This document shows, piece after piece, positions 5,501 to 8,352 of a stretch of DNA of 64,000 bases. The first letter of the stretch is position 1; every line of letters starts with the position of its first letter. Source of the stretch: Vicinamibacterales bacterium. Lineage in GTDB: Bacteria; Acidobacteriota; Vicinamibacteria; Vicinamibacterales; UBA2999. The notes under the pieces were generated by a model. The model did no database searches. It saw only the letters and a list, made by a program, of their open reading frames with translations, and was not told the DNA's origin. The position numbers were made by a program, and so were the translations under genes. The stretch is from positions 1,368 through 65,367 of the forward strand of contig JBOGIQ010000003.1 in assembly GCA_050742535.1 (NCBI GenBank), given 5' to 3'.

Positions 5501-6769
5501 CTCGTCATCAAGGACGAGAAGGGGCGCGATCGCGAGCGCTACCCGATCGTCTACGGCGCGCGGCTGAAGGTGAAGGACGGCCAGAAGGTCGACCAGGGCC
5601 AGGTCATCGTCGAGTGGGATCCGTACACGTTCTCGATCCTCACCGAGGAGCCCGGCGCGGTGAAGTTCAAGGACATCATCGAGGGGCTCACGGTCCACGA
5701 AGAAGTGGACGAGGTCACCGGCCTCTCGCGCTACATCATCGTCGACTCGTCGGATGAGAAGAAGCAGCCGACGATCGAGATCAAGGACAAGACCGGCAAG
5801 GTCATCCGCAAGTACCACATGCCGTCGCACGCGCACCTGATGGTGCAGGACGGCGAGACGGTGGAAGCGGGCGACGTGCTGGCGAAGATCCCGCGCGAAA
5901 CGACGAAGACCAAGGACATCACCGGCGGTCTGCCGCGCGTGGTCGAGCTGTTCGAGGCGCGCAAGCCGAAGGATCCGGCCGTGATCTCGGAAATCGATGG
6001 CGTCGTCAAGGACGGCGGTGTCGTCAAGGGTCAGCGCAAGCTGATCATCGTGCCGGACGATGCGGCGGAGCCGCGGGAGTACTCGATGCCGCGCGGCGTG
6101 CACATCAACGTGCACGAGGGCGAGCGGGTGCGCGCGGGCGAGCAGCTGATGGACGGTCCGAGCAACCCGCATGACATCCTGCGGGTGCTGGGCGAGAAGG
6201 AGCTGCAGAAGTACCTGGTCAACGAAATCCAGGAGGTCTACCGGCTGCAGGGCGTCAACATCAACGACAAGCACATCGAGGTCATCGCCCGGCAGATGAT
6301 GCGGTGGGTGAAGATCGAGGACGTGGGCGACACCGAGTTCCTGATCGAGGAGCAGGTGGACAAGTTCCGGTTCCTCGAAGAGAACGAGCGGGTGATCGGG
6401 CAGGGCGGGCGTCCGGCGACGGCGCAGCCGCTGCTGCTCGGGATCACCAAGGCGTCGCTCTCGACCGACTCGTTCATCTCGGCGGCGAGCTTCCAGGAGA
6501 CGACGCGCGTGCTGACGGAAGCGTCGATCTCCGGGAAGATCGATCACCTGCGCGGGCTGAAGGAGAACGTGACGATGGGACGGCTGATTCCCGCCGGCAC
6601 GGGCTTCGAGTGGTACCGGAACGTGCGGATCCCGGCGGACGAACCGCCACCGCCGCCGGCGCCGCCGCAGCCGACGGAGGACGAGCTCGATCTGGATCGC
6701 GAGATCGAGTACGCGTTCGACGTCGAGGAGCCGATGGCCGGACGCGCTCCGACCGGCGACGTCGAATAG
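2552..6769 (+). CDS. rpoC: DNA-directed RNA polymerase subunit beta' (1405 aa)
   Basis: ATG lies 2 nt after the rpoB stop. Zn-finger [23 protein letters not shown] and catalytic [12 protein letters not shown] are present, followed by a Pro-rich acidic tail ending [12 protein letters not shown]. Confidence 0.98.
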
Positions 6770-6778
6770 CGATCGTGG

Positions 6779-6935
6779 AGTCCGGCTTCAGCCGGATTGC
6801 CGAATGTCGTGTCCGCCTTCAGGCGGACCTGTTTCGTAGGGCACCCCTTCAGAGGTGCCTCCCTCACCCGCCCTTAACCACGAAGGGCGCGAAGAACTCC
6901 TTTATGGTTCTCGTGCCCTTTCTCTTGTACGACTT
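6779..6935. repeat. Composite intergenic palindrome array (REP/MITE-like)
   Basis: Hairpins tccggcTTCAgccgga (6781-6796), GTCCGCCTTCAGGCGGAC (6811-6828) and ggcaccccTTCAGAggtgcc (6840-6859). These are followed by ACCACGAAGGGCGCGAAGAAC pairing with gttctcgtgcccttTc and the CTTGTACG motif. The same modules recur at 7956-8110, 26438-26520 and elsewhere. Confidence 0.85.
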
Positions 6936-7004
6936 GTCGCGCTCGACCTTGGCGACCGGGTCGGCCGGCTCCGCGGACACCTGCTGCCGCGTCTGGCCCT
7001 TGCC

Positions 7005-7034
7005 TTGTTCTGCGGCTGCACATCTGCATAGAAT
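7005..7034 (+). promoter_or_regulatory. Possible sigma70-like promoter for the 7053 cassette gene
   Basis: TTGTTC (7005-7010), 18-nt spacer, TAGAAT (7029-7034), about 19 nt upstream of the ATG at 7053. Pattern match only. Confidence 0.25.
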
Positions 7035-7052
7035 GCCGCGCCGCCGCCACTC

Positions 7053-7307
7053 ATGCCGTCGAGTAACCTGCCTCGAGAAATCGACACCGAGAAGCTGGCC
7101 GAGATTGCGCTCGCACTGTTGTCCCTGACACTTCATGACAACGGCCGTGTGTGGAAGGGACTGGATTGGGACGTTCTCGACCTGCTTGAGGAGAAGGGCT
7201 GGATCGTCGAGGCGCAGACCAAAGCGAAATCCGTGATCCTGACGGAGGAAGGCGAACGTCTGGCCGGCGAGTTCCTGCACCGCCACCTGTACAGGCATCC
7301 CCGATAA
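7053..7307 (+). CDS. Small hypothetical protein, resembles the DUF6429 family (84 aa)
   Basis: Clean ORF with coding-like codon usage. [43 protein letters not shown]....[11 protein letters not shown] matches my recollection of DUF6429 proteins. It sits between two copies of the rpoC 3' end. Confidence 0.6.
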
Positions 7308-7323
7308 ACGACGCGCGTCTCAT

Positions 7324-7565
7324 GGACGCCAGTGTCTCCGGAAAGATCGATCACCTGCGCGGGCTGAAGGAGAACGTGACGATGGGACGGCTGATCCCCG
7401 CCGGCACGGGCTTCAAGGGGTACCAGAACGTGCGGATCCCGGCGGACGAGCCGCCACCGCCGCCGCAGCCGACGGAGGACGAGCTCGATCTGGATCGCGA
7501 GATCGAGTACGCATTCAATGTCGAAGCCGATGGCTGGGAGAGCGCCGACTGGCGACGTCGAGTAA
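7324..7565 (+). pseudogene. Displaced duplicate of the rpoC 3' end (last ~80 codons), frameshifted
   Basis: Aligns with 6519-6769 at roughly 90-95% identity by eye ([26 protein letters not shown]...[13 protein letters not shown]). A 9-nt deletion in the Pro tract removes PAP. A 2-nt deletion near 7525 shifts the frame, and the shifted frame still reads [12 protein letters not shown] (TAA 7563-7565). Confidence 0.9.
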
Positions 7566-7582
7566 CTAACGTCGGCTCGTGG

Positions 7583-7680
7583 CTTCCGCCTTCAGGCGGA
7601 AGGTGACGACACACAGAGGCACCGAGACACCGAGGCTTGGTGCCTCTTTTCATGTACGGCGAGTCCGCGCTAAGGCGGAC
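7583..7680. repeat. Intergenic hairpin repeats
   Basis: cttccgccTTCAggcggaag (7583-7602), a CACCGAGACACCGAGG-type motif (also seen near 18160-18190), and GTCCGCGCTAAGGCGGAC (7663-7680). Confidence 0.75.
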
Positions 7681-7690
7681 CAGAGGGCGA

Positions 7691-7915
7691 ATGGGCTACG
7701 ACTGTCCCGATGGCGTGGACGTCGCGGTGGACTCGTGTAGCAGCGAGGCAGATGATGCCAAGGCCACGTGTGTCGTCGTGCGCGTCGATCAGCCACCCAA
7801 GAACGGCGTCGAGGTGACGTTCACCGAGACCTACGCGGCGCTCGTCAAACGGATTGCGAGCTGCAGACGGCGCCCGCTAATCGTTCTCGACGGGAAGCTC
7901 GATTTTGCCCCTTGA
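7691..7915 (+). CDS. Hypothetical small protein (74 aa), cassette 2
   Basis: ORF MGYDCPDGVDVAVDSCSSEADDAKATCVVVRVDQPPKNGVEVTFTETYAALVKRIASCRRRPLIVLDGKLDFAP, ATG preceded by AGAGGG. No recognisable family, so coding status is uncertain. Confidence 0.3.
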   Translation: MGYDCPDGVDVAVDSCSSEADDAKATCVVVRVDQPPKNGVEVTFTETYAALVKRIASCRRRPLIVLDGKLDFAP

Positions 7916-7922
7916 GTGTCAG

Positions 7923-7955
7923 CGCGCCCGGGCGCCGACCGGCGACGTCGAGTAG
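7923..7955 (+). other. Third copy of the rpoC terminal codons (remnant, ~30 nt)
   Basis: cgcgcccgggcgccgaccggcgacgtcgagTAG reads [10 protein letters not shown], compared with the rpoC tail GRAPTGDVE*. Confidence 0.8.
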
Positions 7956-8110
7956 ATGTAGTGTCCGCCTTCAGGCGGACCTTCATTCGTAGGCGCCCCT
8001 TCAAGGGTGCCTCCTTCACCCGACGTTAACCACGAAGGGCGCGAAGAACGCGAAGGGCACGAAGCTTCGTTGGCAGGGGCCGACCTTAAGGTCGGCCCTT
8101 TTCTCGTACG
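7956..8110. repeat. Composite intergenic palindrome array (REP/MITE-like)
   Basis: ATGTAG + GTCCGCCTTCAGGCGGAC (7963-7980), ggcgccccTTCAAgggtgcc, CACCCGACGTTAACCACGAAGGGCGCGAAGAAC, gggccgaccTTAAggtcggccc (8077-8098), then TTTTCTCGTACG. Confidence 0.85.
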
Positions 8111-8246
8111 CTCGCGGGCGTCAACCTTGACTGCGTGCAGATTTTCTTGACGAAAGGTCAGCCGGCGCCCTCGGCTTGCTCGGTCTATTTCGTCGTCGAT
8201 GACGCCAATGAGTTGTGCGCGTGGCACGTGTCGGCTGATGGATCAG

Positions 8247-8285
8247 CCGATGGCTGGTCGGGCGCCGACCAGCGACGTCGAGTAG
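8247..8285 (+). other. Fourth copy of the rpoC terminal codons (remnant, ~39 nt)
   Basis: ccgatggctggtcgggcgccgaccagcgacgtcgagTAG reads [12 protein letters not shown], compared with the rpoC tail [12 protein letters not shown]. Confidence 0.85.
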
Positions 8286-8340
8286 ATGTAGTGTCCGCCT
8301 TCAGGCGGACCTGCAGTCGCAGGGCACCCCTTCTTTCGCC
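8286..8340. repeat. REP-like palindrome
   Basis: ATGTAG + GTCCGCCTTCAGGCGGAC (8293-8310), followed by a truncated GGGCACCCCTTC module. Confidence 0.8.
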
Positions 8341-8352
8341 TTCAGGAAGACG

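Follow-up and report, generated by a model that had tools for sequence, protein, structure and literature searches.

How does the end of an essential gene come to be repeated behind the intact gene, with other genes lying between the repeats? The question is raised by rpoC, which encodes the β′ subunit of RNA polymerase, in a 64-kb stretch of DNA from a soil Vicinamibacterales bacterium (Acidobacteriota), here called the window, to which all coordinates given without a locus label refer. The gene is intact (2552..6769, + strand, 1405 aa; recognized from the list of open reading frames (ORFs), from its translation, and from relatives at 85% amino acid identity), and copies of its 3′ end stand at three places downstream of it. 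A preliminary description of the sequence had reported these copies and proposed that they were left by serial site-specific integration, either of mini-cassettes mobilized in trans through an att core inside the rpoC tail or of larger elements that have since eroded. Based on the comparisons reported here, we lean towards reading the region as a fossil stack of displaced rpoC 3′ ends, left by repeated C-terminal displacement in which rpoC served as the homology anchor.

Copy 1 is the currently functional end of the gene, its last approximately 270 nt (6500-6769, + strand). Copy 2 (7308..7565, + strand) is a displaced end that aligns with the whole of 6500-6769; it had been placed at 7324-7565, and it is a real copy, but its homology begins at 7308 (corresponding to 6500), immediately 3′ of the stop codon of a DUF6429 gene. 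An identity of about 90% to 95%, a 9-nt indel, and a 2-nt frameshift had been estimated for it by eye, and we measured 92.6% identity with 6530-6769 (17 mismatches in 229 aligned nt) and two deletions relative to the live end, one of 9 nt in the Pro-rich tract and one of 2 nt close to the end. Copies 3 and 4, identified by alignment and translation, are short, as described, and comprise the last ~33 nt (7923..7955, + strand) and the last 41 nt (8245..8285, + strand) of an rpoC end. The four copies thus lie at or near the positions first assigned to them; indeed, a 24-mer core, GCGCCGACCGGCGACGTCGAGTAG, matches with at most 2 mismatches at 6746, 7542, 7932, and 8262, while shuffled sequences give an expectation of 0.00. 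All four still encode (PMAG)RAPT(G/S)DVE followed by a stop, each in the appropriate frame, in agreement with the earlier translations, copy 3 reading (CQRA)RAPTGDVE-stop. No more than the last ~33 nt are common to all of them; copies 3 and 4, taken with the repetitive extragenic palindromic (REP) hairpins behind them, share 65 nt at 94% identity. The essential gene itself remains intact while direct repeats of its end flank the inserts.

The differences between these ends are mostly silent. Between copies 1 and 2, 12 of the 17 mismatches are synonymous and 12 of the 17 fall on third codon positions; if CGC to AGA is taken as a single Arg-to-Arg change, the count becomes 13 synonymous and 4 non-synonymous differences. 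Relative to copy 1, all three differences of copy 3 and five of the six of copy 4 are synonymous. The same bias is found in related loci (the loci fetched for comparison are labelled L001-L137, of which L001-L030 are the 30 closest acidobacterial species representatives of GTDB): 16/20 mismatches are synonymous between ends A and C of L087 and 23/31 between its ends A and B, as are 13/13 differences between the copy and the live end in L108 and 5/7 in L093. With a neutral expectation of ~27% synonymous changes among random substitutions in this sequence, binomial tests gave P = 2e-4 to 4e-8 for four of these comparisons (copies 1 and 2 of the window, A and C and A and B of L087, and L108; L093 was left out). 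In the tail, the Gly codon is GGA, GGG, and GGT in copies 1, 2, and 4, and the Arg codon is CGC, AGA, CGG, and CGG in copies 1 to 4; judged by their codons, the tails of the window are four distinct alleles.

A displaced end that matches another lineage was found in L132. This copy is in frame except for one in-frame internal deletion, and it ends in DTDEPMLGRPPAGDVE and EYAFDTDEPMLGRPPAGDVE, each followed by the stop, exactly like the live rpoC tail of L084 and L092, whereas the live tail of L132 itself differs (DADEPVAGGRGPVGDIE, then stop). At the nucleotide level, the L132 pseudo-end is 88.3% identical to the live end of L084 versus 83.8% to the live end of L132. Because the differences are mostly synonymous and at third positions, and because the L132 copy matches the live tails of others, the copies diverged under purifying selection in separate genomes before they came together, each having formerly been the functional end of rpoC in a genome of its own. 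Such a history rules out simple in situ duplication followed by neutral decay. Simple local tandem duplication was also rejected on the counts themselves, as the intervals hold different genes and 70% to 100% of the differences are synonymous against ~27% expected. Of the initial idea that older ends decay downstream, the trimming holds (see the length series below), but the copies still encode the tail and the array is not the decayed debris of a local duplication.

The homology of the units does not end with the gene. The 3′ untranslated region (3′UTR) of the live rpoC, as read from the sequence (6770..6930; this and the following elements lie on the + strand), contains an extra hairpin (6779-6798) that is absent from L130 and L131, a REP (6804-6831), a second hairpin (6840-6859), and a terminator-like hairpin with a T-tract (6879-6930). 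Behind copy 3, alignment revealed a 3′UTR (7956..8110) with a REP, the second hairpin, a motif TTCACCC..CACGAAGGGCGCGAAG, and a terminator (8075-8108). Positions 6804-6897 are ~90% identical to 7956-8049, so that the unit homology continues well beyond the stop codon, approximately 150 nt into the 3′UTR. This type, shared by copies 1 and 3 (REP, second hairpin, TTCACCC...CACGAAGGGCGCGAAG, terminator), is the arrangement found behind the live rpoC of L130 and L131, and the CACGAAGGGCGCGAAG terminator-arm motif also lies 45-85 nt past the live rpoC stop in L089. The 3′UTR accompanying copy 2 (7566..7690) is of a different type, with a REP-like hairpin (7577-7604), a terminator hairpin (7620-7652), and a second REP-like hairpin (7656-7683), and by comparison it matches the live rpoC 3′UTR of L092 and L085. 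Copy 4 is followed by a REP recognized by alignment (8286..8323), and 8324 marks the right edge of the variable region, where homology to L130 and L131 resumes. The segment 7956-8246, previously called unassignable, therefore consists for about half its length (7956-8110) of a copied rpoC 3′UTR, and the designation fits the 134 nt between unit 3 and copy 4 (8111..8244, no strand assigned), for which no homologue was found among the fetched loci. Since native 3′UTRs accompany the copies, the segment moved each time comprised an rpoC end, its 3′UTR, and DNA beyond; unlike an attP-like stub, which would end at the stop codon, the moved DNA is a chromosomal segment. Serial displacement by incoming replacement ends, which the preliminary description had postulated, is thus upheld by the synonymous bias, the L132 tail match, and the 3′UTR types of the relatives.

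The REP hairpins between the copies, already recognized from the sequence, are a separate matter. Their genome-wide form, GTAG followed by GTCCGCCTTCAGGCGGAC, gave 18 strand matches (0.25 expected) distributed over nine sites; four of these sites, found by a motif scan of the window, lie outside the rpoC region a few nucleotides past stop codons (14803-14820, 25078-25095, 44110-44127 on the - strand, and 48361-48378 on the - strand). As the same REP is present after stop codons elsewhere in the window, the hairpins are not specific to the array. A GC-rich palindrome preceded by GTAG in an intergenic 3′ position, which characterizes REPs and bacterial interspersed mosaic elements (BIMEs), describes the hairpins only and not the array, and we conclude that these REPs are ordinary genome-wide elements. 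The context of the REP at 25078, TAGATGTAGGGTCCGCC, is nearly the same as that behind copies 3 and 4.

We then consider what lies between the copies. The first cargo gene (7053..7307, + strand) encodes an 84-aa protein of the DUF6429 family, as had been suggested (Pfam E = 5.8e-25; 180 homologues). The gene is conserved and comes first past rpoC in L130, L131, and L132 as well, the contig of L133 stopping short of rpoC; it lies behind the rpoC terminator and is probably an expressed accessory gene. The second, the previously noticed 74-aa ORF (ORF74; 7691..7915, + strand), has three homologues at 68-97% identity, which occupy unrelated contexts, with neither flank matching the window in L134 and with a position between a response-regulator gene and a tRNA gene in L137; ORF74 is therefore here a stranded remnant of a larger insert. 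No match was obtained with DUF6429 or ORF74 in a PDB sequence search, and when ORF74 and a 94-aa pseudo-end ORF were looked up as exact proteins, the same NCBI contig was the sole result. A sigma-70 promoter scan found no sites, and Rfam over 6400-8500 yielded sub-threshold chance matches only. The pseudo-ends are probably inert today.

No tail repeat was found in the 30 closest GTDB representatives, the nearest of which is a Vicinamibacterales metagenome-assembled genome (MAG) at 85% amino acid identity, and a tblastn re-check of 99 loci returned only L010, a whole-gene rpoC tandem. As the GTDB representatives are without them, the tail repeats are lineage-restricted in this sample. In L010 (CAVXIO010000004.1, Acidobacteriota MAG MFD03346.bin.1.90; 1-7782), the entire rpoC stands twice in tandem (1-3496 versus 4255-7750, 92% nucleotide identity), and the first copy, having lost its last codons and stop, reads via the spacer into the second; the tandem reflects either a genuine addition of a whole gene or an artefact of long-read haplotype duplication.

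Arrays with the same plan were found in closer relatives, which come from independent metagenomes. In L087, which is 89-90% identical to the window at the nucleotide level, the live end (at 2043) is followed by a TIR-domain gene and a diverged pseudo-end of ~790 nt; next come a 354-aa ORF and a PDC-S70/DUF3368 gene, and last a pseudo-end of 1633 nt (C) that is 98.7% identical to the live gene. The TIR-domain protein (L087:2242-3405; PF13676) has a weak PDC-S66 match, and the PDC-S70/DUF3368 protein (L087:5763-6245, - strand) is full-length (E = 1.8e-43) and probably has a small upstream partner; the cargo of this island is of defence type. An identical 9-nt deletion in the CCGCCGCCG proline tract occurs in copy 2 of the window (7457-7458) and in pseudo-end B of L087 (~4165), most simply explained by recurrent slippage within the repeat. 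In L093, an M23 peptidase gene separates the live end from a ~30-nt copy whose similarity runs past the stop, and in L108 a 66-nt copy lies beyond a 109-nt spacer. L132 and L133 have the DUF6429 gene followed by a pseudo-end of at least 440 nt, the live rpoC end being visible upstream in L132; in L133, a DUF4258 gene and another small ORF are annotated in the gap, and the right side differs. L130 and L131 match the left side of the window through the first 58 nt of copy 2 and then continue with a TTCACCCGACGTTAACCACGAAGGGC motif (which stands behind copy 3 in the window) and a 393-aa gene before rejoining the window at 8324. The presence/absence polymorphism predicted for the cassettes was borne out by these variants (L130/L131 and L132/L133). 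Across all arrays, the cargo comprises DUF6429, ORF74, the TIR protein, the 354-aa ORF, the PDC-S70/DUF3368 protein, the DUF4258 gene, and the M23 peptidase.

The pseudo-ends behind DUF6429 form an erosion series: L132 retains at least 440 nt, the window has 258 nt, and L130 and L131 are down to 58 nt. For this reason, present pseudo-end lengths reflect later deletion and not the original size of the homology, and this series, together with an ORF74 without its neighbours, agrees with the suggestion that the units are eroded remains of larger elements. Over all loci, the pseudo-ends and repeats are 28, 33, 41, 66, 258, at least 440, ~790, and 1633 nt long, with scattered 5′ boundaries. The rpoC tail is variable between lineages while the upstream part is conserved, and the tail peptides of the affected lineages are unrelated (GDVE, GDLD, GDLGE, and KDDGE). 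Downstream of rpoC, synteny among relatives is essentially absent: in 29 of them, 101 ORFs of the 3′ flank match 95 Pfam families, none common to more than 3 ORFs. As the downstream genes are without synteny, no empty site can be defined, and a non-syntenic flank of this kind typifies recombination hot spots that adjoin a conserved anchor.

How could such a stack be built? Under the displacement that we favour, DNA from a related strain would enter the cell with the 3′ part of its rpoC, the 3′UTR, the terminator, and downstream DNA. The conserved body of rpoC would act as the homology anchor, and pairing would fail near the variable tail; the far, non-homologous end would then be attached by an illegitimate join (homology-facilitated illegitimate recombination, HFIR) or, alternatively, a circularized fragment would integrate by a Campbell-type single crossover. 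In either case, the incoming end would become the live end of the essential gene and the resident end would be displaced downstream as a pseudo-end, after which deletions would trim pseudo-ends and cargo to the present units of 0.3-0.6 kb. In the window, such events would have been repeated at least three times. Because the tail varies while the upstream part of rpoC is conserved, heteroduplexes would tend to extend no further than the vicinity of the gene end, and the long pseudo-ends (1633, ~790, and at least 440 nt) are more easily reconciled with homologous pairing than with a short att site. The route, which we infer, would thus consist of RecA-type anchoring plus an illegitimate join and would involve no dedicated recombinase.

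Several points weigh against this proposal. No intermediate of transfer or recombination was observed, and the route is deduced from its end products. Three successive illegitimate joins would all have to fall within the last ~270 nt of rpoC, requiring either strong survivorship or a bias, for which the breakdown of homology at the variable tail is a possible source. We know of no natural competence in Vicinamibacterales. The copies of 28-41 nt are too short for efficient RecA pairing, so that later erosion has to be invoked for them, and erosion is seen for copy 2, through the length series, but not for copies 3 and 4. In L087, ends A and C form a mosaic whose differences are confined to the two extremities, the central 1.2 kb being identical, which neither simple model predicts without gene conversion. 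L084 has a truncated tyrosine recombinase 3 kb downstream of rpoC. The relatives yielded no clean empty site and instead show replacement and deletion variants (L130/L131, L132/L133, and L134). Finally, HFIR is rare in the species in which it has been measured (PMC5361080).

The alternative that survives best, which we nevertheless regard as unlikely, is the site-specific integration first proposed, in which elements with a tyrosine or serine recombinase would use an attB in the rpoC 3′ end and bring a replacement end in their attP, the integrases being lost or acting in trans. Integrase islands at the 3′ ends of tRNA, transfer-messenger RNA (tmRNA), and protein genes form tandem arrays in which the incoming copy restores the gene. 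The rpoC array resembles them in its direct repeats of a gene 3′ end around accessory cargo, the classic footprint of such islands, in older ends that lie progressively further downstream, in an essential gene left intact by every event, and in cargo of accessory, defence, or toxin-antitoxin type (TIR, PDC-S70/DUF3368, and DUF4258). It differs from them in that it has no integrase, fixed core, or fixed boundary. More specifically, Pfam detected no integrase or recombinase in any ORF between the copies of the window, L087, L093, L108, L130/L131, or L132/L133; of these, L087, L093, L108, and L132/L133 are four independent lineages, and L130/L131 have the junction of the window. When the window and 62 loci were screened for the box II motif of tyrosine recombinases, a truncated ORF in L084 was the sole match, this being a regular-expression search that does not rigorously prove the window to be without an integrase; likewise, the Pfam summary of the 101 downstream ORFs covers the top 25 families, and a single integrase beyond these could be missed. 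The pseudo-ends reach 1.6 kb with differing 5′ boundaries, the homology extends ~150 nt into the native 3′UTR, and the tails are unrelated between affected lineages, which leaves no common core. The GCGCCGACCGGCGACGTCGAGTAG core had no match among the 2.9 million contigs of IMG/VR, and 6770-8345 showed no meaningful similarity to plasmid and phage collections. The array thus fails those defining tests of an integrase island that were run (integrase, core, and boundary). Accordingly, neither the att core with trans-mobilized mini-cassettes nor a core of ~30-40 bp conserved among relatives, both anticipated by the preliminary description, was supported by the comparison.

Two observations of mobile elements beside rpoC speak for site-specific integration. 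In L084 (4366-6581), 3-4 kb downstream of rpoC, a truncated tyrosine recombinase of 211 aa, with box II and only the C-terminal half of PF00589, lies with an IS481-type transposase; L084 is without a tail duplicate. In distant taxa, two predicted proviruses of IMG/VR (L126:1-1428 and L115:1-2083) adjoin the rpoC stop, starting within the last few hundred nucleotides of the gene, with a Phage_GPD baseplate gene 118 nt past the stop in L126 and a DUF2514 gene close behind rpoC in L115; in other phyla, prophages may use the 3′ flank of rpoC as their site. In the literature searched, rpoC is not described as a target of integration for these bacteria.

More doubtful than site-specific integration is a local origin of the copies, through REP-mediated or slippage duplication of the rpoC end with deletions, the live end being later overwritten by allelic homologous recombination. 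Each copy does have a REP behind it, and the 65 nt shared by copies 3 and 4 take in the REPs. The rpoC tails of the clade look mosaic, the last codons of copy 2 resembling the live L130 end and copy 1 resembling L085; the identity of ends A and C of L087 over their central 1.2 kb suggests gene conversion; and the L010 tandem shows an entire rpoC doubled. This alternative, however, leaves several features unaccounted for. The intervals contain unrelated genes that are not duplicated (DUF6429, ORF74, TIR, the 354-aa ORF, PDC-S70, and M23), the 3′UTR of copy 2 is unlike those of copies 1 and 3, and four synonymous alleles would demand repeated cycles of duplication and allele replacement. In addition, the displaced copy of L132 is nearest to the live end of another lineage.

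We give slightly less credence still to the speculation that the end of the rpoBC operon in Vicinamibacterales is a platform for cassette acquisition, integron-like but built on the end of an essential gene, with the rpoC tail and the REP/3′UTR as the recombination site. The agent may be a trans-acting recombinase, a REP-associated transposase encoded elsewhere, or a dedicated RecA-dependent capture of circles, and the small genes of defence or toxin-antitoxin type stacked in this way may be expressed by read-through from a strong constitutive operon.

Hardly credible, finally, is an assembly chimera in which the rpoC ends of co-existing strains were strung together via shared REP k-mers: synonymous strain-level divergence between copies is what strain mixtures show, but the junctions of cargo and pseudo-ends are novel sequence and not repeat joins, the junction of the DUF6429 stop with copy 2 is found in three independent samples (the window, L130 from forest, and L131 from farmland), and analogous arrays exist in the unrelated assemblies of L087, L093, L108, and L132. 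In a second assembly, the NCBI MAG contig L081 (GCA_973834645.1), the four copies are arranged in the same way, and the sequence does not differ over 6500-8400; L081 represents essentially the strain of the window and is hence only weakly independent. On the side of a chimera, a Logan short-read contig from SRR27067713 (L083), 100% identical to the window, breaks exactly in copy 4, at 8283, as expected since short-read assemblies stop at repeats. Between the window (2785-3500) and L081 (1-720), 93 of the 102 differences are clustered within ~700 nt near the start of rpoC, the two sequences being otherwise nearly identical; the cluster reflects either recombination within the body of the gene or chimerism at the end of the contig.

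Three further classes were rejected outright. A diversity-generating retroelement does not fit, as the mismatches between copies 1 and 2 are of all types, 8/17 involve A in copy 2, and the interval has no reverse transcriptase; for an integron cassette array, there is no IntI at the array, and the repeats are coding gene ends plus ordinary REPs; and a tRNA-type att site is discounted, the window containing no tRNA or tmRNA.

To the right of the variable region, the first conserved neighbour, present also in L130 and L131, is a convergent gene of the arylsulfotransferase family (8353..9801, - strand; Pfam). It is adjoined by a 347-aa ORF (9875-10918) whose C-terminal ~140 aa recur at seven other sites of the window with 29-39% identity (13599-14024, 18977-19315, 20172-20588, 24612-25064, 25497-25946, 29104-29484 on the - strand, and 42822-43268 on the - strand), an expanded domain family without a Pfam match.

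Displacement of gene ends has precedents. The C-terminal displacement arrays of rhs genes have been proposed to arise by homologous recombination that involves circular intermediates (Jackson et al. 2009, PMC2935791). As in the orphan-tip arrays of rhs and contact-dependent inhibition (CDI) loci, the conserved 5′ gene body of rpoC is the anchor and lateral 3′ ends replace the resident end; older ends lie in an ordered downstream array, each led by a piece of the conserved body, and no dedicated recombinase is involved. Indeed, the arrays of the window, L087, and L132 combine a conserved body with a variable tip, and by the synonymous bias and the L132 match the displaced tips are laterally acquired functional alleles. 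Unlike rhs and other polymorphic-toxin loci, rpoC is an essential housekeeping gene, and its tips are the acidic C-terminal tail of β′ without toxin domains; there are no immunity genes behind the tips and no evident selection for tip switching, the payload being the donor's DNA downstream of rpoC. The array works like the C-terminal displacement of rhs, CDI, and type VI secretion system (T6SS) loci but is not a member of the polymorphic-toxin systems.

In the T6SS effector-immunity arrays of Vibrio cholerae, sequential displacement by HFIR was proposed and was contrasted with integrons, no integrase being present (Kirchberger et al. 2017, PMC5361080). The rpoC array is like these modules in that successive insertions next to a conserved anchor move 3′ remnants, along with the genes downstream, further away, and it is unlike them in persistence, as the Vibrio arrays persist through retention of immunity genes while the rpoC units are without apparent selection of that kind and heavily eroded (0.3-0.6 kb). 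A likeness to minimal mobile elements is also seen, in small accessory cassettes without mobility genes, in homologous exchange via conserved flanking genes, and in the non-syntenic flank; however, minimal mobile elements use two conserved flanks and replace DNA, whereas here the rpoC side alone is conserved and the events are additive. Such elements, and hot spots flanked by core genes, reportedly occur in naturally transformable bacteria, the work being that of Saunders and Snyder and of Oliveira et al. 2017.

The pseudo-ends have practical consequences. Gene callers turn them into small proteins of their own, such as a 154-aa 'RNA_pol_Rpb1_5' protein in L132 (1537-2001) and a 94-aa ORF in L081 (4541-4825), from which spurious protein families arise; short-read assemblies, too, are broken by them, as in L083. 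The interest of the array lies in its recurrence in several lineages and in the legible record that it offers of gene gain without an integrase at an essential gene, and it is tempered by units that are eroded and probably inert and by a mechanism that has precedent. If the displacement reading is true, an essential and highly conserved housekeeping gene would, through homology on one side only, anchor gene gain that is repeated and additive in a soil lineage that is abundant but little studied, and C-terminal displacement would reach beyond the polymorphic-toxin loci. In-frame, synonymously diverged copies of a gene end with native 3′UTRs would then provide a signature for integrase-free insertion hot spots in metagenomes. 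Each gain would leave a dated pseudo-end, making the array a readable stratigraphy of past transfers.

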